Shown in pieces: positions 265 to 26,279 of a DNA stretch of 26,279 nt. The stretch lies in the UHGV virus genome UHGV-0017443. One strand, 5' to 3'. The position numbers and the translations under genes are program-made. The notes under the pieces were generated by a model, which had not been told where the DNA came from, searched no databases, and saw nothing but the letters and a program-made list of their open reading frames with translations. The number at the start of each line of letters is the position of its first letter. Positions within the stretch are counted from its first letter, which is position 1. This DNA is from a virus.

Positions 265-597
265 TCAATCGTAATAAGCTGGAATTGATTTTCCGCGTCG
301 CTTCTGGCGGCCTGAGCATGTCACACCCATTTCACTGCGTGGCTTGCTGTACCATGTGCGCTGATTCTTGCGTTCAATACGTTGCAGGTTGCTTTCAATC
401 TGTTCGTGGTATTCAGCCAGCACTGTAAGGTCTATCGGATTCAGTGCGCTTTCTACTCGTGATTTCGGTTTGCGATTCAGCGAGAGAATAGGGCGGTTAA
501 CTGGTTTTGCGCTTACCCCAACCAACAGGGGATTTGCTGCTTTCCATTGAGCCTGTTTCTCTGCGCGACGTTCGCGGCGGCGTGTTTGTGCATCCAT
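265..597 (-). CDS. N: Antitermination protein N (lambda-type)
   Basis: Translation from the internal Met of the 265..687 ORF gives MDAQTRRRERRAEKQAQWKAANPLLVGVSAKP..., matching the arginine-rich N-terminus of lambda N as I recall it; AGGAGA SD upstream; nutL lies upstream on the same strand. Confidence 0.9.
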   Translation of the reverse strand: MDAQTRRRERRAEKQAQWKAANPLLVGVSAKPVNRPILSLNRKPKSRVESALNPIDLTVLAEYHEQIESNLQRIERKNQRTWYSKPRSEMGVTCSGRQKRRGKSIPAYYD

Positions 598-777: not shown

Positions 778-807
778 AAATATACCTACAGGTAAAACAG
801 CTGTCTA
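778..807 (-). promoter_or_regulatory. pL-like leftward early promoter (-35 TAGACA, 17-bp spacer, -10 TATATT)
   Basis: Minus strand reads TAGACAgctgttttacctgtaggTATATTttaggccATCAGCAGGACGCACTGACC; the transcribed start matches the lambda pL leader; hexamers overlap the operator palindromes. Confidence 0.6.
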
Positions 808-819: not shown

Positions 820-881
820 AATAAAATTGATGTAAGAGTTTACCTGCTTGAATTTTCAGGTAATTAATTTTTTGGATTGAT

Positions 882-904
882 ATAAAAAAGCCCGCTTTGC
901 GGGC
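882..904 (-). terminator. Rho-independent terminator ending the cI operon
   Basis: Minus strand GCCCGC-AAA-GCGGGC hairpin followed by TTTTTTAT, about 13 nt after the stop of the 917..1231 ORF. Confidence 0.7.
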
Positions 905-916
905 TGAAAGGAGATG

Positions 917-1231
917 TCAGAAGCTATTTGGATTGCTTGGCCATTGCGGCAATTTTGATTCTACTGGGGTGTGTTTGGGTTTGAGTCCGTTTAAGTAGTC
1001 AAGACGCTCAATGGCGCATTTATACATAGCAATCTGCTCTGATGACATGTCGTCGTATGACATGCCTTTGAACTTTTTAATTATCGATTCTGCCTCATGT
1101 ATAAGATGCTTCTTCTTCATGAGTTCAGCTGTATGCTTAGAGCTTACAGGAGATAACTTTGCCCATATGAAGCAGATGATTACAACAGCGACTACTATGC
1201 CGGGTATAAACACTTGCTGCTTTATCCTCAA
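917..1231 (-). CDS. Small membrane protein (about 98-104 aa) co-transcribed downstream of cI; function unknown (occupies the rexAB position)
   Basis: ORF start overlaps the cI stop (TTGA; start would be TTG at 1231, alternatively GTG at 1213 with a GAGGA SD 11 nt upstream); N-terminal hydrophobic helix IPGIVVAVVIICFIWA then a charged soluble tail; followed by an intrinsic terminator. Confidence 0.55.
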   Translation of the reverse strand: MRIKQQVFIPGIVVAVVIICFIWAKLSPVSSKHTAELMKKKHLIHEAESIIKKFKGMSYDDMSSEQIAMYKCAIERLDYLNGLKPKHTPVESKLPQWPSNPNSF

Positions 1232-1914
1232 ACTTTTGGCAGATCGTCCTGGTCTACGTACCTGGTGTGTTTCACAATAGCTGAAACAAAATGCATTTTA
1301 TCAACTTCTTCAACAGGAAGAGTGATTGGGCGGTGATCACTGTTTATGCTACTAAACTGATAATCACCGTCTCTTGTTTTGTTCATGATCTTTATCATGT
1401 TGTGACCGTCTTTGGTCCTTACAAAGACTTCATCACCTGGATGTACTGGCGTATTTGGTTCAATAACAACATATTCTCCTGACTGAATCCTTGGCCACAT
1501 GCTGTCACCCTTAACCTTCAGACCGTAAGCATCTTTATCGCCGCTGTAGATGCTTAACCAACCGGATCTGAATTCAATCATATCCACTGAGCCATCAACT
1601 CCCAAAACGGCTTCACCAATTACCGGAACAAAACCCGCACGAACGTTACCCGCAAACTCAAGATGGTCTGTAGCTCCAGCTTTACCATCTGCAAGCATGT
1701 CCATCCATCCGCGTGGGAGATTAAAAGATTTTTCAATTAGTTCCATCATATCGTCAGCAATGCGTTTTTTTCCGCTTTTTCCTTCCGGATACAGCATTCT
1801 GGAAACGTATGATGGTTCCCTTTCTATTCGACGAGCCAACTCTGAGGCCTTTCCATTACAGAATCGGTCTCTTATCTCTATCAGCCTTAGTCGTCTTTGT
1901 TCGTATTTATCCAT
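1228..1914 (-). CDS. cI: CI-type prophage repressor (HTH plus S24 LexA-like autopeptidase domain)
   Basis: 228 aa; N-terminal HTH-like segment (GKASELARRIEREPSYVSRM) and C-terminal GDSMWP...K motif typical of S24 self-cleaving repressors; divergent from the cro-like gene across an operator region. Confidence 0.88.
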   Translation of the reverse strand: MDKYEQRRLRLIEIRDRFCNGKASELARRIEREPSYVSRMLYPEGKSGKKRIADDMMELIEKSFNLPRGWMDMLADGKAGATDHLEFAGNVRAGFVPVIGEAVLGVDGSVDMIEFRSGWLSIYSGDKDAYGLKVKGDSMWPRIQSGEYVVIEPNTPVHPGDEVFVRTKDGHNMIKIMNKTRDGDYQFSSINSDHRPITLPVEEVDKMHFVSAIVKHTRYVDQDDLPKV

Positions 1915-1920
1915 GATTTA

Positions 1921-1990
1921 ATTCTATCTTTGATTACCTGCCGGTAAATAACCTATGGGTATTGATTTGCTTTTTACCTACAGGTAAACT
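1921..1990. promoter_or_regulatory. OR operator region with divergent pRM (leftward, leaderless) and pR (rightward)
   Basis: Operator-like palindromes TACCTGCCGGTA (1935..1946), ACCTATGGGT (1951..1960) and TACCTACAGGTA (1975..1986). pR: TTGATT (1962..1967), 17 bp, TAAACT (1985..1990). pRM: minus-strand TAGAAT (plus 1921..1926) six nt before the cI ATG, implying a leaderless cI mRNA as in lambda. Confidence 0.6.
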
Positions 1991-2022: not shown

Positions 2023-2253
2023 ATGGAAGAACTCCGCTTGTATCTGAACTCCCTTTCACTGGAAGAGCAGAGAGAATTTGCCACCAAGTGCGGAACTTCT
2101 ATCGGCTATTTGAGGAAAGCACTTAGCCGTAATCATGAATTGGGCGCAGCACTTTGTGTTCTGATTGAGAAGTTCAGCAATGGTGAAGTGACTCGCAAAG
2201 ACCTTCATCCGGTTGATTGGGAAAGCATCTGGCCTGAATTAATGGCCGCTTAA
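2023..2253 (+). CDS. cro: Cro-like early regulator (non-lambda Cro family)
   Basis: 76-aa ORF immediately rightward of OR with GGAAGGAG SD; positionally Cro; sequence unlike lambda, 434 or P22 Cro as I recall them. Confidence 0.7.
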   Translation: MEELRLYLNSLSLEEQREFATKCGTSIGYLRKALSRNHELGAALCVLIEKFSNGEVTRKDLHPVDWESIWPELMAA

Positions 2254-2691: not shown

Positions 2692-2847
2692 AAACGTCGT
2701 AAGAAATACCAGGAAAAAGAAGAGATTCGACACCCTGATTCACCTGAGGGATTAGTGGTAGCCGCAGCAAATAACAGGGCGTTCGCAGAGCGCCTTGTTG
2801 GTGTTTACAGACTAGCCAAAGCAGGAGTGAAACATGGGCGTCGTTAA
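2686..2847 (+). CDS. Small basic ORF (53 aa) between cII and the O-like gene
   Basis: ATG with AGGAG SD at the right spacing; [53 protein letters not shown]; overlaps the start of the O-like gene by 14 nt; below the 60-aa ORF-track cutoff. Confidence 0.35.
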   Translation: MTKRRKKYQEKEEIRHPDSPEGLVVAAANNRAFAERLVGVYRLAKAGVKHGRR

Positions 2848-3664
2848 GTTAGCTGATTACAGGCCTCAACTGGAGGTCGTGGAGCATCGCGTGGCAGAAC
2901 TCGAAGATGGCTACACTCGGACTGCAAACACACTGTTAGAAGCCGCCATGCTTTCTGGGCTTACTGCACATCAGTTACTGATTGTTATGGCTGTGTGGCG
3001 CAAGACATACGGTTACAACAAAAAAATAGATTGGATCGGAAACGAACAGTTCGCTGAACTCACTGGCATGGCACCAACCAAATGCTCTACCGCCAAAAAC
3101 GAGCTTATCAGAATGGGAGTTCTCATTCAGGTGGGGCGTCAAGTTGGTATGAATACAAACATTTCCGAGTGGAAAACGAAAGTTAACGGATTCGGTAAAA
3201 CATTTACTAATTCGGTAAAACAAACCTTCACCAAATCGGTAAAAAGCAATTTACCGAATCAGTCAAACACAAAAGACAATATACAAAAGACAATAAATAC
3301 AAATACCCCCTTACCCCCTAACGGGGGCGGCGATGGGCAGGTTAAACCTGAACGTCGCAAGGCAGAACGAATCGACTACGAATCCTTCCTGAACGCCTAC
3401 AACACCGAAGTCGGTGACAGACTGCCACACGCTGTTGCGGTCAACGAGAAACGCAAACGCCGCCTGAAGAAAATCATCCCGCAACTGAAAACGCCAAACG
3501 TGGACGGTTTCAGAGCGTATGTCAGGGCGTTTGTACATCAGGCCAAGCCGTTTTACTTCGGAGACAACGACACTGGCTGGACGGCAGATTTTGATTACCT
3601 GCTGAGGGAAGATTCGTTAACGGGAGTACGGGAAGGGAAGTTTGCAGACAGGGGGATTGCATGA
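2834..3664 (+). CDS. Replication initiation protein, lambda O / P22 gp18 family
   Basis: 276 aa; N-terminal [15 protein letters not shown]...[15 protein letters not shown] resembles the lambda O N-terminal DNA-binding domain; iterons and an AT-rich tract sit inside the gene as in lambdoid origins. Confidence 0.85.
3187..3330. repeat. Replication origin: iterons (TCGGTAAAA, 3 direct and 1 inverted), AT-rich tract, short G/C palindrome
   Basis: TTCGGTAAAAC at 3191 and 3211, ATCGGTAAAAAG at 3236, inverted TTACCGAATC at 3251; then an A-rich stretch 3263..3305 and CCCCC-TAAC-GGGGG at 3313..3326. Confidence 0.7.
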
Positions 3665-5037
3665 AACAGGATATCGAAGCGAGCGTTATCGGTGGACTGC
3701 TGATTGGTGGATTAACACCAACTGCCAGTGACGTTCTGGCAACGCTTGAGCCGGAAGCGTTTTCAATTCCGCTCTACCGGAAAGCCTTCGAGGTTATCCG
3801 CAAGCAGGCGCGAAACAGAAACCTAATCGACGCGCTGATGGTTGCCGAGGCGTGCGGAGAGGAGCATTTTACGTCAATCCTGATGACCAGCAAAAACTGC
3901 CCGAGCGCCGCAAACCTGAAGGGATATGCCGGAATGGTCGCGGATAACTATCACCGCCGTCTGGTGCTGGAAATCATGGATGAAATGCGTGAACCAATTC
4001 AGAGCGGAACCATCGACGCATCGAGTCAGGCGATGGATGAACTTGTAAAGCGTCTTTCAGCCATCAGAAAGCCCCGTGACGAGGTAAAACCTGTACGGTT
4101 AGGGGAAATCATTACTGACTACACTGACACGCTTGACAGGCGTCTGAGGAACGGAGAAGAGTCCGATACCCTGAAGACCGGAATCGAAGAACTTGATGCC
4201 ATCACCGGAGGGATGAACGCGGAAGACCTGGTGATAATCGCTGCTCGTCCTGGTATGGGGAAAACCGAACTGGCGCTGAAGATTGCCGAAGGCGTTGCAA
4301 GCCGCGTTATTCCTGGTTCTGACGTCCGGCGCGGGGTATTGATTTTCTCAATGGAAATGAGCGCATTGCAGATTGCAGAGCGAAGCATTGCCAACGCCGG
4401 GAGGATGTCGGTTAGCGTACTGCGAAATCCTGCATCGATGGATGACGAAGGCTGGGCGCGTGTTGCTAACGGCATGAGTCAGCTTGCAGATTTGGATGTA
4501 TGGGTAGTCGATGCCTCGCGGTTATCGGTAGAAGAAATTCGCTCAATCGCAGAGCGGCACAAACAGGAAAATCCAAACCTGTCACTCATCATGGCGGATT
4601 ATCTTGGCCTGATTGAGAAGCCGAAAGCAGACCGCAACGACCTCGCAATTGCTCACATCTCCGGAAGCCTGAAGGCGATGGCGAAAGACCTGAAAACGCC
4701 AGTTATCTCCCTGAGTCAGCTTTCGCGCGATGTTGAGAAGCGACCAAACAAACGCCCGACAAACGCAGATTTGCGTGATTCTGGAAGCATTGAGCAGGAC
4801 GCAGACTCAATCATCATGCTCTATCGGGAAGCGGTATATGACGAGAACAGTAGCGCCGCGCCATTTGCTGAAATCATCGTGACGAAAAACCGTTTTGGCT
4901 CACTTGGTACGGTTTACCAGCGGTTCTGTAACGGACACTTTGTTGCATGTGACCAGGATGAAGCCAGACAGATTTGCACAGCATCAAATGCACCTGCTGC
5001 ACGTGGCAGACGATATGCACAAGGGGCGGACGTATGA
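3661..5037 (+). CDS. Replicative DNA helicase (DnaB family; P22 gene 12-like)
   Basis: 458 aa; Walker [16 protein letters not shown], DnaB-type N- and C-domains; start overlaps the O-like stop (ATGA). Confidence 0.9.
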
Positions 5038-5118: not shown

Positions 5119-5331
5119 ATGGACACCGTTAACGGAATGTGTTCAGACGCACCGCGTGCCAAGAAATGTAAATGCGGAAAATCACCGACAATATTCGACA
5201 TGGATAACGGGTGCCAAATCTACTGCGCTAACCACGCTGCTGTGGCGGCCGCGAATTATCGCAGTGCGGTAACGGAGTGGAATAACCTGAAATCTGTTAG
5301 AGAGGGAAGTCATGAAAAAACTAACCTTTGA
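5119..5331 (+). CDS. Small Cys-rich protein (possible zinc ribbon), unknown function
   Basis: 70 aa with Cys cluster C-x9-C-x-C-x13-C-x3-C; GAGGG SD upstream; occupies the ren position upstream of ninB. Confidence 0.5.
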   Translation: MDTVNGMCSDAPRAKKCKCGKSPTIFDMDNGCQIYCANHAAVAAANYRSAVTEWNNLKSVREGSHEKTNL

Positions 5332-5752
5332 AATTCGATCCCCAGCACATCAGCAAAACGCTATTCACGCGGTACAGCAAATTCTTCCAGACCCAACCAA
5401 ACCAATCGTAGTAACCATTCAGGAACGCAACCGCAGCTTAGACCAAAACAGGAAGCTATGGGCCTGCTTAGGTGACGTCTCTCGTCAGGTTGAATGGCAT
5501 GGTCGCTGGCTGGATGCAGAAAGCTGGAAGTGTGTGTTTACCGCAGCATTAAAGCAGCAGGACGTTGTTCCTAACATTGCCGGGAATGGCTTTGTGGTAA
5601 TAGGCCAGTCAACCAGCAGGATGCGTGTAAGCGAATTTGCGGAGCTATTAGAGCTTATACAGGCATTCGGTACAGAGCATGGCGTTAAGTGGTCAGACGA
5701 AGCGCGACTGGCTCTGGAATGGAAAGCGAGATGGGGAGACAGGGCTGCATGA
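5312..5752 (+). CDS. ninB: NinB (Orf-family recombination mediator)
   Basis: 146 aa, [50 protein letters not shown]..., matches lambda NinB as I recall it. Confidence 0.9.
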
Positions 5753-5931
5753 GACGACAGCGACGAAGTATCACCGACATAATCTGTGAAAACTGCAAAT
5801 ACCTTCCAACGAAACGCTCCAGAAATAAACGCAAGCCAATCCCAAAAGAATCTGACGTAAAAACCTTCAACTACACGGCTCACCTGTGGGATATCCGGTG
5901 GCTTAGAGAACGTGCGAGGAAAACAAGGTGA
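5749..5931 (+). CDS. ninD: NinD-like small zinc-binding protein
   Basis: ATGA overlap with the ninB stop; [60 protein letters not shown]. Confidence 0.7.
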
Positions 5932-6098
5932 TTGACCCAAATCGAAGTTACGAACAACAAAGCGTCGAGCGGGCTTTAACGTGCGCTAACTGCGGTCAGA
6001 AGCTGCATGTGCTGGAAGTTCACGTGTGTGAGCACTGCTGCGCAGAACTGATGAGCGATCCGAATAGCTCAATGTACGAGGAAGAAGACGATGAATGA
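5928..6098 (+). CDS. ninF: NinF-like protein
   Basis: GTG start overlapping the ninD stop; [56 protein letters not shown] resembles lambda NinF. Confidence 0.65.
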
Positions 6099-6813
6099 GT
6101 TAATAAATGGCAATGCCATAAAAATGACAAGCATTGAAATCGCTGAGTTGGTGGGTAAGCGTCATGACAATGTGAAACGTACCATCGAAACGCTGGCTAA
6201 AAATGGTGTTATCCGGCTTCCTCAAATTGAGGTTTCCGAAAGAATCAATAACTTAGGGTTCAATGTTCAGTACGAGCATTACGTCTTCGAAGGCGAACAA
6301 GGTAAGCGAGATAGTATTGTTGTTGTTGCCCAGTTGTCGCCAGAGTTCACCGCTCGCCTTGTTGACCGCTGGCGAGAGCTTGAAGAAGCTGCGGTTAATA
6401 TCACCAAAACGCTACCAGAAGCGTTGCGCCTTGCTGCTGATCTTGCTGAGCAGAAAATGCAACTAGAAAACCAGCTCGCAATTGCCGCACCTAAAGTTGA
6501 GTTTGCCGAACGCGTTGGCGAGGCCAGCGGAATTTTGATTGGAAACTTTGCAAAGGTTGTCGGTATTGGTCCAAGCAAACTGTTTGCGTGGATGCGCGAT
6601 CACAAAATCCTTATTGCTTCAGGTTCCCGGCGCAATGTGCCAATGCAGGAATATATGGAGCGCGGCTATTTCACAGTGAAAGAAATAGCGGTCAATACAA
6701 ATCACGGAATACAGATATCGTTCACCACAAAAATCACCGGGCGTGGTCAACAGTGGCTGACCAGAAAGCTGCTCGATAACGGAATGCTGAAAGTAACAGG
6801 GGAGGCTGCTTAA
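6091..6813 (+). CDS. Antirepressor-like protein (N-terminal Rha-type domain, C-terminal ANT/KilAC-type domain)
   Basis: 240 aa; SIEIAELVGKRHDNVKRTIETL motif typical of the phage Rha regulatory family; the C-terminal half resembles phage antirepressor domains; inserted within the nin operon. Confidence 0.65.
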   Translation: MNELINGNAIKMTSIEIAELVGKRHDNVKRTIETLAKNGVIRLPQIEVSERINNLGFNVQYEHYVFEGEQGKRDSIVVVAQLSPEFTARLVDRWRELEEAAVNITKTLPEALRLAADLAEQKMQLENQLAIAAPKVEFAERVGEASGILIGNFAKVVGIGPSKLFAWMRDHKILIASGSRRNVPMQEYMERGYFTVKEIAVNTNHGIQISFTTKITGRGQQWLTRKLLDNGMLKVTGEAA

Positions 6814-7103
6814 TGGCTAACCTACGCAAAGAAGCGCGCGGCAGAGAATGCCAGGTACGTATTTACGGCGTATGCAATGGCAATCCTGAAACTACAGTTC
6901 TGGCACATTACCGGATGGCTGGAATTTGCGGAACGGGAATGAAGCCTGACGACCTGATCGGCGCATGGGCTTGTAGCGCGTGTCACGATGAAATCGACCG
7001 ACGCACCCATAATCTCGACAACAAAGACGCCAGACTTTACCACCTCGAAGGTGTGATCAGGACGCAGACGATACTGCTGAAGGAGGGGAAGATTAAGCCA
7101 TGA
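6813..7103 (+). CDS. YbcO-like protein (DUF1364-type, Cys/His-rich, putative nuclease)
   Basis: 96 aa, MANLRKEARGRECQVRIYGVCNGNPETTVLAHYR... with C/H cluster; the family sits next to rusA in lambdoid nin regions. Confidence 0.65.
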   Translation: MANLRKEARGRECQVRIYGVCNGNPETTVLAHYRMAGICGTGMKPDDLIGAWACSACHDEIDRRTHNLDNKDARLYHLEGVIRTQTILLKEGKIKP

Positions 7104-7462
7104 ACGAATATCAGTATGTGCTTCCTTACCCGCCGTCGGTGAACACCTACTGGCGAAGACGGGGAAGCCAATACTACATCAGCGATAAAGGCCAGAAATA
7201 CCGAAAAGACGTTCAGCAAATCATCCGCCAACCTAAGTTAGACATTTTCACCAAATCACGACTCCGCATCAAAGTCATCGCAGACGTTCCAGACTCCCGC
7301 CGCCGCGACCTCGACAACATCCTGAAAGGTTTACTCGACTCCCTTATCCACGCCGGATTTGCGGAAGACGACGAGCAATTCGATGACATTCGCGTAATTC
7401 GTGGCGTGAAAGTACCAGGCGGAAGGCTTGGAATAAAAATCACCGAACTGGAGAGCGTATGA
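7100..7462 (+). CDS. rusA: RusA Holliday-junction resolvase
   Basis: 120 aa; PYPPSVNTYW...DSRRRDLDNILKGLLDSLIHAGF...GGRLGIKITEL parallels E. coli RusA catalytic motifs (DxRRRDLDN). Confidence 0.85.
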   Translation: MNEYQYVLPYPPSVNTYWRRRGSQYYISDKGQKYRKDVQQIIRQPKLDIFTKSRLRIKVIADVPDSRRRDLDNILKGLLDSLIHAGFAEDDEQFDDIRVIRGVKVPGGRLGIKITELESV

Positions 7463-9224: not shown

Positions 9225-9299
9225 GGGTCAGTCGTATAAAGGTCATTACGGAAGGCTGTTAACCTTCTTATCGTGGTTCGAGTCCACGCTGTCCCGCCA
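9225..9299 (+). tRNA. tRNA-like gene, anticodon GTT (Asn), with one acceptor-stem mismatch
   Basis: Hand-folded cloverleaf: acceptor GGGTCAG/CTGTCCC (T-T mismatch at 4:69), D-arm with GG, anticodon stem GAAGG/CCTTC with loop CTGTTAA, T-arm CGTGG-TTCGAGT-CCACG, discriminator G, encoded CCA. Confidence 0.5.
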
Positions 9300-9304
9300 A
9301 ACAT

Positions 9305-9380
9305 GCTGGTTTAGCTCCAATGGTGGAGCAGTCGCCTTGTAAGCGAATGGGTAGCGGTTCAAGTCCGTTAACCAGCACCA
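9305..9380 (+). tRNA. tRNA gene, anticodon TGT (Thr)
   Basis: Perfect 7-bp acceptor stem GCTGGTT/AACCAGC, D-stem GCTC/GAGC, anticodon loop CTTGTAA, T-arm AGCGG-TTCAAGT-CCGTT, discriminator A, encoded CCA. Confidence 0.7.
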
Positions 9381-11109: not shown

Positions 11110-11397
11110 GTCATTACAAAGCCCATCTACGGGTGGGCTTGATAATGAAACCGGAGTTAATTTCTGGTCACTAATTAACGGCAGTACCGCGAAACAACCC
11201 AAGCCAGTAAGTGGGGAAATAACACTGGCAGCCACTGAAAGATGAACCTCCTGCCTTATGGCAAAAAAGATTCTTTGTGGTGGCGGACTGATGGAAAGAC
11301 ATCGGTTAGAATCAAGCAGTGGCTAGGGTAGCTCCCGAAAAGCGTAATCGTCACCGCCTGCCACTGATTCAATGACGAACAACTAGACGAGGTTGTT

Positions 11398-22711: not shown

Positions 22712-24100
22712 ATGGCTACTTGGCAAGGAACAAACGGCGGATTGTTGGCTGGTATCGGCGGCGTCAACTCAAACGCTCCGAGCGTAAATGACATCGGCAA
22801 TACGCTTCAGCTTATCAGGCAGAACAATGATATTGAGCGTTCAGGCGCTAACAATGTTGGGCTGACTGCTTTGCAAGGCCTTTCAGGTATTGCGGGGGTG
22901 TTTCAGCAGGAAAAGCAGGCTCAGCGGCAGAAAGAATTTCAGCAGGCATACGCTAATGCTTATGCGTCTGGTGATCGCGGTGCTTTGCGTCAGTTGGCTA
23001 CTCAATATCCAGACCAGATTGAATCCGTTCGTAAAGGCATGGGATTCATTGATGAAGACCAGCGTAATTCTATCGGCACCTTAGCGGCTGGCGCACGCCT
23101 TGCGTCATCGTCTCCAGAAGCAATGCAATCATGGCTGCAAAACAACGCCAAGGAACTGACTCGCGTCGGTGTTGACCCTAACAGCGTTGCTCAGATGTAT
23201 CAGCAGAATCCTTCAGGATTTGGTGAGTTTGTTGATCACCTTGGGATGGCTGCTCTCGGTCCGATTGACTACTTCAATGTTCAGGACAAGATGGCTGGTC
23301 GTGAGATTGACCGAGGCAGACTGGCAGAGACAATCCGCAGCAATCAGGCAGGAGAGGCACTAACAGCACGAGGTCAGAACATCACGATGCGAGGTCAGGA
23401 CTTATCTGCTTCTACTGCGCGACGAGGTCAGGATTTGGCAATGCAGCGAGCGTCAACAAGACGAATCGCTGGGAATGATGAGCGTACAGTTCAGTTATCA
23501 GATGGCAGAACTGTAACGGTAGGCGGGAAGCTTCACGGCGCTGGGGCTAATGCGTTCTACGAAGGCATCGACAACGAGGGGAATATGGTTCGCGTTCCTG
23601 CCAGTTCAATCGCAGCGCCTGCAACATCGTCTGCATCAGCACAAAACTATGCCATGAAGAAGGATATCGACGCGATCGCAAATGCAGACGCTTCTGCTCT
23701 CGATTTCATGACAGGAATGACAGGCGGTGCAGGTAATCCAGCAATTGGTGCTGATGTTCGCAGCCGATTAACAGGAAAAGAGCAGCGCCAGTTATATAAC
23801 TCAGCACAACGTATTCAGGGCAGAATGCAGAATCAGGGTGTGGCGGCAGCAAGGGACATGGGTGCCAGTGGTATTAACACCGTTGCAGAAGCGAAGATGT
23901 ATTTTCAGGGGATGCCGCAGGTTGACTATTCAAGCCCGGAGGCTATGCAGCAGTCGATTCGTGAGATTCAGGAATACACCAACAATTACAACCAACAATA
24001 TAACGTTAATGTTGGTAAATCTCAGCGGCAGCAATCTCAACCTGCACAGGTATCACAGCCAGCAGCCAGCAGTAACTTTTCTTCACTATGGGGTGATTAA
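22712..24100 (+). CDS. Ejection protein (P22 gp20-like)
   Basis: 462 aa, position and composition as P22 gp20. Confidence 0.8.
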
Positions 24101-26109
24101 TGGCTAAAGCATGGAAAGATGTTATCGCCTCTCCACAGTATCAGGCGTTAGCACCAGAACAAAAAGCGCAGGCTCAGGAGCAATACTTCAATGAAGTCGT
24201 TGCCCCGCAAGCCGGAGAAAATGCAGAGCAGGCTAAGCAAGCTTTCTATGCTGCCTATCCATTGCCATCTGTGCAGCCAGTGGAGACACAACAACCAGTA
24301 GCACAGCAACAACCACAGCAAAGTGGATTTATGTCTGATCTTGGTGAAGCAGTAAAAGAGACTGGTCGCGGACTGGTGCAGGCTGGCGTGAACGTGGCAA
24401 ACATACCTGCATCAGTTGCCGATGCTGTAACAAGCGCGGCGGCTTGGGCTGGCGGTAAACTCGGAATTGGCGATGGGACATATCACCCAGCGCCACGAGT
24501 AACAACGCAGGGATTAGAGCAGGACTTTGGCCTTCAGCAAGGCGCGCTGACTCCACAAACTACAGAGGGCAGGGTATTTGCTGAGGCATTGCCTTACCTC
24601 ACTCCTGCTGGCATTGAGAGAGCGGCAACACAGGCACCAACACTCGCTGGTAGAATCGCTCAGGGTGCAACTCGCCTTCTCGCTGAAAACGCAGTCGGGT
24701 CACTTGCTGCAAATAGTGCGAAAGATGATGCGAAAGATGATGCGGAAGCACTCGCTACCGATTTAGGCGTTGGCGTTCTGGCTGGCGGCGCTATTAACGC
24801 TGCCGGACGTGGATTAGGCGCTGCTTATCGTGGCGTTCGTGGTGCTATTGCACCAGAAGCGCAGCAAGCTATCAGATTTGCAGAGCGTGAAGGAGTGCCT
24901 CTGCACACCACAGACCTGTTACAGCCTACTTCCCGCGTCGGGAAAATGGCGCAGACTACAGCAGAAAATATCCCCCTGGCTGGCACAAGCGGAATGAGAG
25001 CAACGCAACAGGAAGCGAGAAGTCAGTTGGTGCAGAGATTTGCTGATAAATTCGGCGAGTACGATCCGGCAGTTGTTATTGACAGCCTTAAAGCGAAAAC
25101 ATCAGGAATTCGTCGTGCCGCCGGTAATCGACTGGAGCAGGTTCAGAATGCTATGGCTGGAGTAAACATTCAGCCTGCGCGAGCAATTCAGCAGATTGAT
25201 ACAGAAATATCTAATCTGCAGAAGCTTGGTAAGGTCGCTGATAACGAGACTATTTCAAAACTTCAGTCATATCGTGATGAGCTTGTTCGCAATGCTGGTC
25301 CTGATGGTCCGGTAAATCTGGACTTGAAGCAATTAAGCGATCTGCGCAGCCAGTTCAGAATGGACGTGAAGGGTGAGCGACCAGTGTTACCAAACCGTTC
25401 CGATGCCGCCATTCAGCGCGTTTACAAGGCGATGACCGACGATATCAATGGTGCCATTGGTCAGAATCTTGGCAACGATACTCTCCGTAAATATCAGCAG
25501 GCCAATGCCGTCTACGCTGACGAAGCGGCGAAACTCAAGAATACCAGGCTGAAGAATGTTCTCATGAAAGGCGATCTGACGCCGGAAGTTGTCAATAACA
25601 TGCTATTCAGCAAGAACAAATCTGAAATTAAGACACTGTATAACTCAGTTGGTCGTGTTGGCAGGGCGCAAATGCGCAATGGCATCATTGGAAAGGCGAT
25701 AGAGAAATCAGGTGGTTCACCTGATCAGTTCCTTCGACAGCTTAACATCCTGCAAAACCAGACTGGCATCACATTTAAGGGGCAGGACGCTGCTTATCTG
25801 AAAGGATTGAAAAACTACCTGCAATCCACGCAGCAGGCTGCAAAAGCGGCAGTAACAACACCAACAGGGCAGCAAACCATCCCGTTCATTATCGGGTATG
25901 GGACGGCAATGAACCCGGCGACAACTGGCGCAGCGGTAAGCTACGGACTTCTTACTCGCGCCTATGAGAGCGAACCATTCAGAAATGCAATGCTCCGAAT
26001 GGCAAACACCCCACGCGGATCAACAGCCTTTGAGAAAGCAATGCAGCAGGCACAAAAGGCAATTAACGCTCTGACGCAGGGGGCTAAGTCTGATGCGTTG
26101 TCAGAATAG
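24100..26109 (+). CDS. Ejection protein (P22 gp16-like)
   Basis: 669 aa, last gene of the ejection-protein trio; longer than P22 gp16 (about 609 aa). Confidence 0.8.
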   Translation: MAKAWKDVIASPQYQALAPEQKAQAQEQYFNEVVAPQAGENAEQAKQAFYAAYPLPSVQPVETQQPVAQQQPQQSGFMSDLGEAVKETGRGLVQAGVNVANIPASVADAVTSAAAWAGGKLGIGDGTYHPAPRVTTQGLEQDFGLQQGALTPQTTEGRVFAEALPYLTPAGIERAATQAPTLAGRIAQGATRLLAENAVGSLAANSAKDDAKDDAEALATDLGVGVLAGGAINAAGRGLGAAYRGVRGAIAPEAQQAIRFAEREGVPLHTTDLLQPTSRVGKMAQTTAENIPLAGTSGMRATQQEARSQLVQRFADKFGEYDPAVVIDSLKAKTSGIRRAAGNRLEQVQNAMAGVNIQPARAIQQIDTEISNLQKLGKVADNETISKLQSYRDELVRNAGPDGPVNLDLKQLSDLRSQFRMDVKGERPVLPNRSDAAIQRVYKAMTDDINGAIGQNLGNDTLRKYQQANAVYADEAAKLKNTRLKNVLMKGDLTPEVVNNMLFSKNKSEIKTLYNSVGRVGRAQMRNGIIGKAIEKSGGSPDQFLRQLNILQNQTGITFKGQDAAYLKGLKNYLQSTQQAAKAAVTTPTGQQTIPFIIGYGTAMNPATTGAAVSYGLLTRAYESEPFRNAMLRMANTPRGSTAFEKAMQQAQKAINALTQGAKSDALSE

Positions 26110-26198: not shown

Positions 26199-26279
26199 TT
26201 AGCTGCTGTCTTTTTTATATAGCTCCTTGAGCGTATCAAAGACAATTTTCTTAACCATATCAGATTGTTGTTCTGCCAT
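26199..26279 (-). CDS. mnt: 3' end of an Mnt-like (immI-type) repressor gene, truncated by the right window edge
   Basis: Minus-strand translation ...AEQQSDMVKKIVFDTLKELYKKDSS* resembles the C-terminal tetramerisation helix of P22 Mnt (...DEQSELVKKMVFDTLKDLYKKTT) as I recall it; the gene start lies outside the window. Confidence 0.45.
   Translation of the reverse strand: MAEQQSDMVKKIVFDTLKELYKKDSS

Follow-up and report, generated by a model that had tools for sequence, protein, structure and literature searches.

Two gaps in phage genomes, one between cI and N and the other between genes 16 and 9, are the classical homes of prophage exclusion genes. One occupant of the first, the Rex system, is a two-protein abortive infection system in which RexA acts as the sensor and RexB is a channel with four transmembrane (TM) helices. 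Besides rexAB in lambda, the cI-to-N gap, a known mosaic hotspot, can hold bstA, as it does in phage BTP1 (PMC8585504). The second gap is the invariable location of sieA-like genes, which always lie between genes 16 and 9 (PMC10883804). SieA, 162-164 aa long, is predicted to have three TM helices and carries the motif FxRYPxEAxxFNK; members of its family are ~160-200 aa long and have three to four TM helices, and the mutations by which phages escape SieA map to the ejection proteins gp16 and gp20 (PMC10883804). A further precedent is gp15 of HK97, a small, prophage-expressed inner-membrane protein that blocks entry of the genome while sparing the outer-membrane receptor, and whose effect depends on features of the tail of the incoming phage (PMC3594210).

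Here we describe a small gene that lies behind the cI-type repressor gene of a P22-like prophage and that was singled out, in an original prediction made from the DNA sequence, as a candidate for an exclusion or defence function. The DNA analysed is a stretch of 26,279 nt, called the window below; all coordinates without a locus name refer to it.

The immunity region of the window

The left 2.7 kb of the window, taken on the minus strand, forms a lambdoid immunity region, and the remainder consists of P22-like virion genes, including the ejection-protein gene 16 at 24100-26109 (+). The left neighbour that delimits the cI-to-N slot is the N antiterminator gene (265..597, -), whose translation begins MDAQTRRRERRAEKQAQWK; beside it, a nutL boxB hairpin, GCCCTGAAGAAGGGC, can be recognized from the sequence at 708-722. 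A pL-like promoter (TAGACA-17-TATATT; 807..779, -) is present at the place equivalent to that of the annotated pL of coliphage mEp043, together with OL operators at 783-794 and 808-819 that follow a TACC-N4-GGTA pattern. On the other side of cI, OR contains three operator half-palindromes that match the same pattern (1935-1946, 1950-1961, and 1975-1986). This pattern occurs 12 times in the window, versus 3.9 matches expected, and five of the matches cluster at the two ends of the unit formed by cI and the small gene.

The repressor gene itself (1228..1914, -) encodes a 228-aa protein with an S24 autocleavage domain, which matches Pfam PF00717 (E=1.4e-17) and PHROG 4 ("transcriptional repressor"), in agreement with the original assignment of the upstream gene as the CI repressor. 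A pRM-like promoter (TTTACC-16 nt-TAGAAT; 1948..1921, -) precedes it. Since the -10 hexamer of this promoter ends 6 nt before the cI ATG (1914), the transcript would be leaderless, as is that of lambda cI. A cro-like gene (2023..2253, +), which is divergent from cI and is annotated as Cro in mEp043, marks the right limit of the immunity region and is followed by cII on that side. Between the OL operators and the terminator described below lies a long palindrome, TTACCTG-N10-CAGGTAA (840-863), which consists of operator half-sites at a wider spacing and is conserved in two other alleles, L060 and L061; in L060, the only hairpin 3' of the small gene is the palindrome that matches 840-863. This element could represent a hairpin or a third OL site of atypical form.

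Positions 700-2100 of the window are 99.4% identical to mEp043, the repressor proteins of the two are 100% identical, and the counterpart of the 917-1231 open reading frame (ORF) in that phage is mEp043_049, labelled "hypothetical protein." mEp043 is a lambda-like siphovirus and the window comes from a P22-like podovirus; thus, the immunity module moves between virion types and carries the small gene with it. A mosaic joint is seen on the right side of cII (2834-5037 in the window, 5126-7401 in mEp043, locus L001): behind the same immunity region, the window has a gene for a 276-aa replication protein and one for a DnaB-type helicase, and an O-type protein and a primase/helicase are encoded there in both mEp043 and E. 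coli PA45B. Elsewhere in the window, tandem phage-borne genes for tRNA-Asn(GTT) (9225-9299, +) and tRNA-Thr(TGT) (9305-9380, +) lie upstream of the lysis block, and a match to the Rfam int-alpA sRNA is present at 11316-11378 (+; 37.8 bits, with a gathering score of 35.8). Rfam and tRNA scans detect no RNA genes within 700-1300.

Start codon and transcription unit

The small gene shares its strand with cI and is situated inside the immunity region, in the interval from cI to OL/pL, with a terminator directly after it; it thus holds the rexAB position, as originally proposed. The mechanically called ORF (917..1231, -) has 104 codons, counted from a TTG that shares bases with the cI stop (gTTTGA), and for this frame the overlap with cI that had been described is real. 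However, the true start is almost certainly the GTG at 1213, judging from comparison with other alleles, and the gene would then occupy 917..1213 (-), with its TGA stop at 917-919 and a product of 98 aa. With this start the gene begins 14 nt past the cI stop, without overlap. Four sister alleles from E. coli (L005-L008) have ATG in place of the codon at 1213, and all family members align from this position. In L061 an in-frame stop is found directly upstream of the aligned ATG, and in L060 the aligned GTG is the sole start available. Furthermore, positions 1-98 of the 98-position PHROG 10450 profile match residues 7-104 of the 104-aa frame, and a match that begins at residue 7 again places the start at GTG 1213.

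Consequently, of the two non-ATG starts originally offered, GTG 1213 is retained and TTG 1231, which overlaps the cI stop TGA at 1228-1230, is rejected, because the extension that it would create (1214..1231, -) is absent or impossible in L060 and L061 and the relatives begin at the position of GTG 1213. With the extension, the N-terminus, which bears no charge in 14 of the 15 family members, would also gain two positive charges; this segment is probably untranslated leader. A GAGG Shine-Dalgarno sequence (1228-1225) overlaps the cI stop.

An intrinsic terminator, the analogue of tIMM/tM for the transcript of cI and the small gene, is located at 879..905 (-), with a stem-loop at 905..889 and a T-run at 888..879. 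Its stem has seven pairs (six of them G-C) closed by a 3-nt loop, with a minimum free energy of -12.6 kcal/mol (z = -2.8), and none of 200 shuffled sequences folds as well. The clean terminator of the original prediction is therefore present, at a distance of 11 nt rather than 13 nt from the stop codon to the stem. The 14 nt between cI and the small gene show no promoter-like site, and no terminator separates the two genes. Given the shared strand, this short gap free of promoter and terminator, and the terminator right after the second gene, the natural reading of the sequence is that cI and the small gene would be co-transcribed from the pRM-like promoter and that this transcript would end at the terminator.

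Selection on the reading frame

Patterns of substitution and conservation indicate that the ORF at 917-1213 is a genuine gene and more than a chance frame. Between alleles that differ at ~3% of bases, pS is ~0.10 and pN is 0.012-0.020, and the pN/pS of the small gene (0.12-0.2) is like that of cI, for which the same allele comparisons give 0.13. The frame is full-length and gap-free in 27/27 IMG/VR viral contigs. In complete E. coli genomes, the ORF region and the cI gene are each present in 52 of 5426, and each match to the ORF region also spans the 3' end of the S24 repressor gene. Even in relatives with 27-41% identity, the frame is open and the architecture, TM helix, length, and motifs are kept. 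Annotation of RefSeq genomes by PGAP leaves the gene unannotated in all E. coli genomes inspected; in all 52, the matches list only "S24 family peptidase."

The protein and its family

The sole family match of the small protein is to PHROG 10450, a family of "unknown function," which it matches over its full length (E=1.4e-54, 183.5 bits). Pfam, NCBIfam, PADLOC, and PDB sequence profiles give nothing significant for it, and with PADLOC not one family is reported at E<=10. Weak Pfam and PHROG matches to TTC3, 60KD_IMP, Aca2/YdiL, and phrog_1077 (E 0.02-0.2) are inconsistent across family members and were set aside as noise. The statement that the protein belongs to no characterised family thus stands; profile searches for the kind of match that would speak against a defence role, one to a characterised family with another function, returned none. 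Among 1.84 billion representative proteins, a profile search detects just 15 clusters, of which 11 reach E<=1e-10; among the matches, P0026 (676 aa) and P0030 (4419 aa) align over short stretches only. Full-length members are 97-114 aa long, begin with an uncharged, hydrophobic N-terminus, and share four motifs (LI.EA., CA..RL, K(K)NH.P, and WP). No study of the small gene was found in the literature on mEp043 and its sister phages. The protein is conserved but uncharacterised, and its family is tiny.

The 98-aa form contains one hydrophobic stretch, with a Kyte-Doolittle mean over 19 residues of 2.4-2.5 at residues 1-20, and the rest of the protein is hydrophilic and basic (pI ~9.1); the single N-terminal TM helix and charged tail of the original prediction are both borne out. 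The corresponding mean is 1.65-2.7 at residues 1-21 in all 15 family members. No K or R precedes the hydrophobic run in 14 of these 15, and two to six K/R are present in the 15 residues that follow it. From the positive-inside rule alone, we infer an N-out/C-in topology in the inner membrane, which would place the helical hairpin described below and the WP tail in the cytoplasm. A signal peptide or lipoprotein was considered and rejected, since a basic n-region, an A-x-A site, and a lipobox are all missing and the hydrophobic run is 16-26 residues long. An AF2 model built on the family alignment (pLDDT 78.6, and >90 at residues 40-80) predicts a long helix at residues 10-53, comprising the TM segment and a stalk, then a loop, a helix at residues 64-82 that packs back, and an extended tail. 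Fold searches return generic hairpins only.

Relatives in two genomic contexts

Relatives of the gene occur in just two contexts: they either directly follow a cI of this type or close the mnt operon. The first, W-type, context includes the window gene and is seen in 27/27 viral contigs and in the 52 E. coli genomes, in which the gene directly follows this cI; two divergent metagenome alleles have the same order of cI and small gene, with gaps of 3-4 nt. The second, N-type, group (27-37% identical to the window protein; for example, phage N7 ORF14) is found in the immI region of P22-like prophages, as the last gene on the mnt strand. N-type genes are present in 57 of the 5426 complete E. coli genomes, with the RefSeq annotation "hypothetical protein." Of the 29 loci that can be placed, 28 have the N-type gene convergent with, and abutting, a homolog of gene 16; the exception, L063, is a decayed prophage in which the gene lies beside the genes for gp7 and gp20. 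One more locus, on a 569-bp contig, yields no genomic context. In the annotation of P22, the position that matches that of the N-type genes is occupied by sieA, and a tblastn search with P22 SieA finds no type-A SieA in the N-type loci.

The two types can occur together. An IMG/VR contig of a P22-like phage, UViG_2563366933_000009 (38.1 kb; L010/L043), carries a W-type gene behind cI and an N-type gene next to gene 16. In the window, the right edge (26205-26279, -) encodes the C-terminus of an Mnt-like repressor (ending in KKIVFDTLKELYKKDSS*), which is directly convergent with the gene 16 homolog. Thus, the slot for sieA or an N-type gene is empty in this prophage.

The mnt operons themselves are variable. 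In L066 and L068 the N-type gene is a closely spaced part of the operon, in which the gaps measure 10-20 nt, and the cargo between mnt and the N-type gene differs among loci. L036 has a reverse-strand gene pair there (3732-4605, -), one member of which, a 149-aa ORF, we take from reading its sequence, and not from a profile scan, to resemble the SocA/Panacea (DUF4065) antitoxin. A different reverse-strand pair is present in L046 (1468-2322, -), and in L066 a Rap1a-like gene (PF18602; 3641-3988, +) is packed into the mnt operon.

The content of the cI-to-N slot likewise varies between phages with related repressors. The cI of 933W (49% identity) is followed by L0084-L0083-stk-L0081, and nothing is annotated in the ~1.9-kb gap of H-19B.

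Divergence between alleles

Where the cI is 84-85% identical to that of the window, the identity of the small protein encoded behind it is no more than 41-43%. A three-way alignment of the DNA shows ~75-85% identity over cI, a fall to ~40-55% over the ORF only, and a return to ~75% in OL/pL; in round figures, the drop across the ORF is from ~78% to ~50%. Proteins that contact rival phages typically show such a pattern of divergence. This fast divergence between alleles, taken together with the purifying selection seen among close alleles, suggests either a functional protein under diversifying pressure or allelic replacement.

Proposed function

The locus is best explained as a genuine prophage accessory gene (a "moron") that would be expressed in the lysogen. 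For its role, the reading that we prefer is that of an inner-membrane superinfection-exclusion protein, made by the lysogen and acting at DNA entry, to which we assign a rough probability of 0.45; that the gene has an anti-phage function of one kind or another appears somewhat better than an even bet. The proposal draws on position, architecture, and evolutionary pattern. N-type paralogs sit at the sieA position of P22, the cI-to-N gap holds rexAB, bstA, or stk in other phages, the divergence of the small protein far exceeds that of cI and the flanks, as would be the signature of an arms race, and HK97 gp15 offers the precedent of a small inner-membrane protein. The proposal is weakened by the fact that slots expressed in the lysogen also hold cargo unrelated to defence, such as the Rap1a-like gene in the mnt operon, and by the lack of a PGAP call for the gene. 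Since the W-type gene is found both in the siphovirus mEp043 and in a P22-like podovirus, its distribution implies no particular class of target phage.

In such a scheme, the pRM-like promoter of the lysogen would transcribe cI, the 14-nt gap, and the 98-codon gene, and transcription would stop at the terminator. The GTG start and the GAGG that overlaps the cI stop should allow modest translation, probably with some coupling to the translation of cI. The uncharged N-terminal helix would then insert into the inner membrane with the N-terminus out and the C-terminus in, so that a basic helical hairpin of ~75 residues would face the cytoplasm, as would the conserved proline/tryptophan tail (K..H.P...WP). 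Present constitutively in the membrane of the lysogen, the protein would hinder the membrane step of DNA entry by an incoming phage, in the manner of P22 SieA and HK97 gp15; it would bind either the channel-building proteins that the phage ejects or bears at its tail tip, or a host factor of the inner membrane that these proteins use. A bolder proposal, which we regard as possible but doubtful, is that the protein founds a new family of minimal superinfection-exclusion proteins (~100 aa, single-pass, N-out/C-in) working from the cytoplasmic side of the inner membrane. Temperate phages of enterobacteria would insert such genes behind either cI (the rex slot) or mnt (the sieA slot), the two places being interchangeable, and rapid evolution of the hairpin and WP tail would be directed against the machinery that rivals use for DNA entry.

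The protein could instead serve the lysogen outside of defence, as a membrane-tethered modulator of a host sensor kinase, transporter, or protease, or as a tuner of prophage maintenance or induction. Small single-pass proteins commonly regulate membrane proteins, and all placed members but one are the terminal gene of a repressor operon, even though the HTH/S24 cI and the ribbon-helix-helix Mnt are unrelated. Such a role would explain the constant tie to two unrelated maintenance repressors, and it fits the equal presence of the gene region and cI among complete E. coli genomes. However, opposite-strand cargo parts mnt from the gene in several loci (such as L036 and L046), so that a direct tie to the repressor is not required, and the related cI genes of 933W and H-19B lack the small gene. 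In addition, divergence so much above that of cI and the operators suits antagonistic co-evolution better than a housekeeping regulatory contact. We consider a role of this kind unlikely.

Abortive infection is another way in which a prophage membrane protein might act. The protein would be a latent agent that damages or depolarises the membrane, triggered by phage to kill or arrest the cell, much like RexB without RexA or a holin-like toxin. The slot is that of rexAB, BstA, and stk of 933W, all of them abortive-infection systems, and a single hydrophobic helix joined to a basic amphipathic region would be in keeping with such an effector. Yet the operon consists of cI, the small gene, and the terminator only, with no sensor partner, the protein has one TM helix against the four of RexB, PADLOC gives no hits, and constitutive co-expression with cI disfavours a toxic product unless it is tightly gated. 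We judge this mode of action to be quite improbable.

A lysis-type protein (i-spanin-like, holin-like, or antiholin-like) is highly improbable. The N-terminal TM helix, two helices, and proline-rich C-terminus give the protein a superficial likeness to Rz-type i-spanins, but the gene is found in the immunity region or the mnt operon and never in a lysis cassette, and the window has its own lysis block at ~9.6-10.9 kb. Moreover, the uncharged N-terminus and basic C-flank predict the opposite of the N-in/C-out topology of i-spanins, and there is no embedded or adjacent frame for an o-spanin lipoprotein; identity as an Rz-type i-spanin was rejected on these grounds of predicted topology, location, and missing partner. 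Finally, a spurious or non-functional frame, a remnant between cI and the terminator, would explain why PGAP skips the gene in every RefSeq genome inspected and would fit the non-ATG start and the weak, distant Shine-Dalgarno sequence, but it is effectively excluded by purifying selection equal to that on cI, the intact frame in all 27 IMG/VR loci, the ATG start of some alleles, and homologs at 27-41% identity that keep the architecture in two genomic contexts.

A small hypothetical gene behind cI is unsurprising per se; the interest of this one lies in its distribution over two slots and in the ease with which it can be tested. One small family that occupies both classical homes of exclusion genes, and that is found nowhere else, makes an unusually clean and cheap-to-test candidate. 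The gene is ~300 bp long and can be expressed alone, and a cultured phage, mEp043, carries it. Natural alleles that are 41% identical (L060 and L061) and lie behind closely similar repressors allow specificity swaps. Because the window prophage has the W-type gene and an empty sieA slot, the contribution of this gene could be tested without a resident gene in that slot. If the protein acts at the cytoplasmic face, it would offer a small tool for the study of phage DNA entry at the inner membrane, a step that is poorly understood. The gene is unannotated in the RefSeq genomes inspected and is thus invisible to surveys of defence islands and pangenomes. The case for exclusion is positional, not mechanistic; nevertheless, the candidate function named in the original prediction was a reasonable reading, and it is now better founded, given that paralogs occupy the sieA slot and that alleles diverge as they do.

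Comparison with known systems

Like SieA of P22, the small protein is predicted to be a prophage-expressed inner-membrane protein, and its N-type paralogs are at the exact position of sieA, downstream of mnt and both adjoining and convergent with gene 16. The most conserved motif of SieA is also predicted to be cytoplasmic (PMC10883804). However, with 98 aa and one hydrophobic segment the small protein differs from SieA in both size and architecture, the motif FxRYPxEAxxFNK is absent from the family alignment, and tblastn with P22 type-A SieA (E<=1e-4) detects no similarity in the window or in the 55 family loci. Unlike sieA, the window copy lies behind cI and not between genes 16 and 9, although the N-type paralogs do fit that location.

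The resemblance to RexAB of lambda is one of arrangement: the genes lie downstream of cI on the pRM transcript, with a terminator before OL/pL (PMC8585504), and RexB is also an inner-membrane protein. In contrast to this pair, the small gene is single and encodes a 98-aa protein with one TM helix, has no partner, and lacks sequence similarity to RexAB (no PADLOC hits). BstA of BTP1 and Stk of 933W share with it the status of lysogen-expressed cargo in the same slot downstream of cI, in lambdoid or P22-like prophages, but both are large, cytoplasmic, and non-homologous; BstA is a DNA-associated abortive infection protein and Stk is a kinase.

For the proposed role, the closest functional model is HK97 gp15, a YebO-like moron product. 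It differs in being encoded in the tail operon, under its own promoter, and in belonging to the YebO family; neither the small protein (E<=1) nor the 15 family members (E<=0.1) have a match to YebO or to any other Pfam entry. Although it belongs to none of these groups, the small protein appears, by analogy, to resemble HK97 gp15 and SieA most in its proposed action and RexAB most in its place in the genome.
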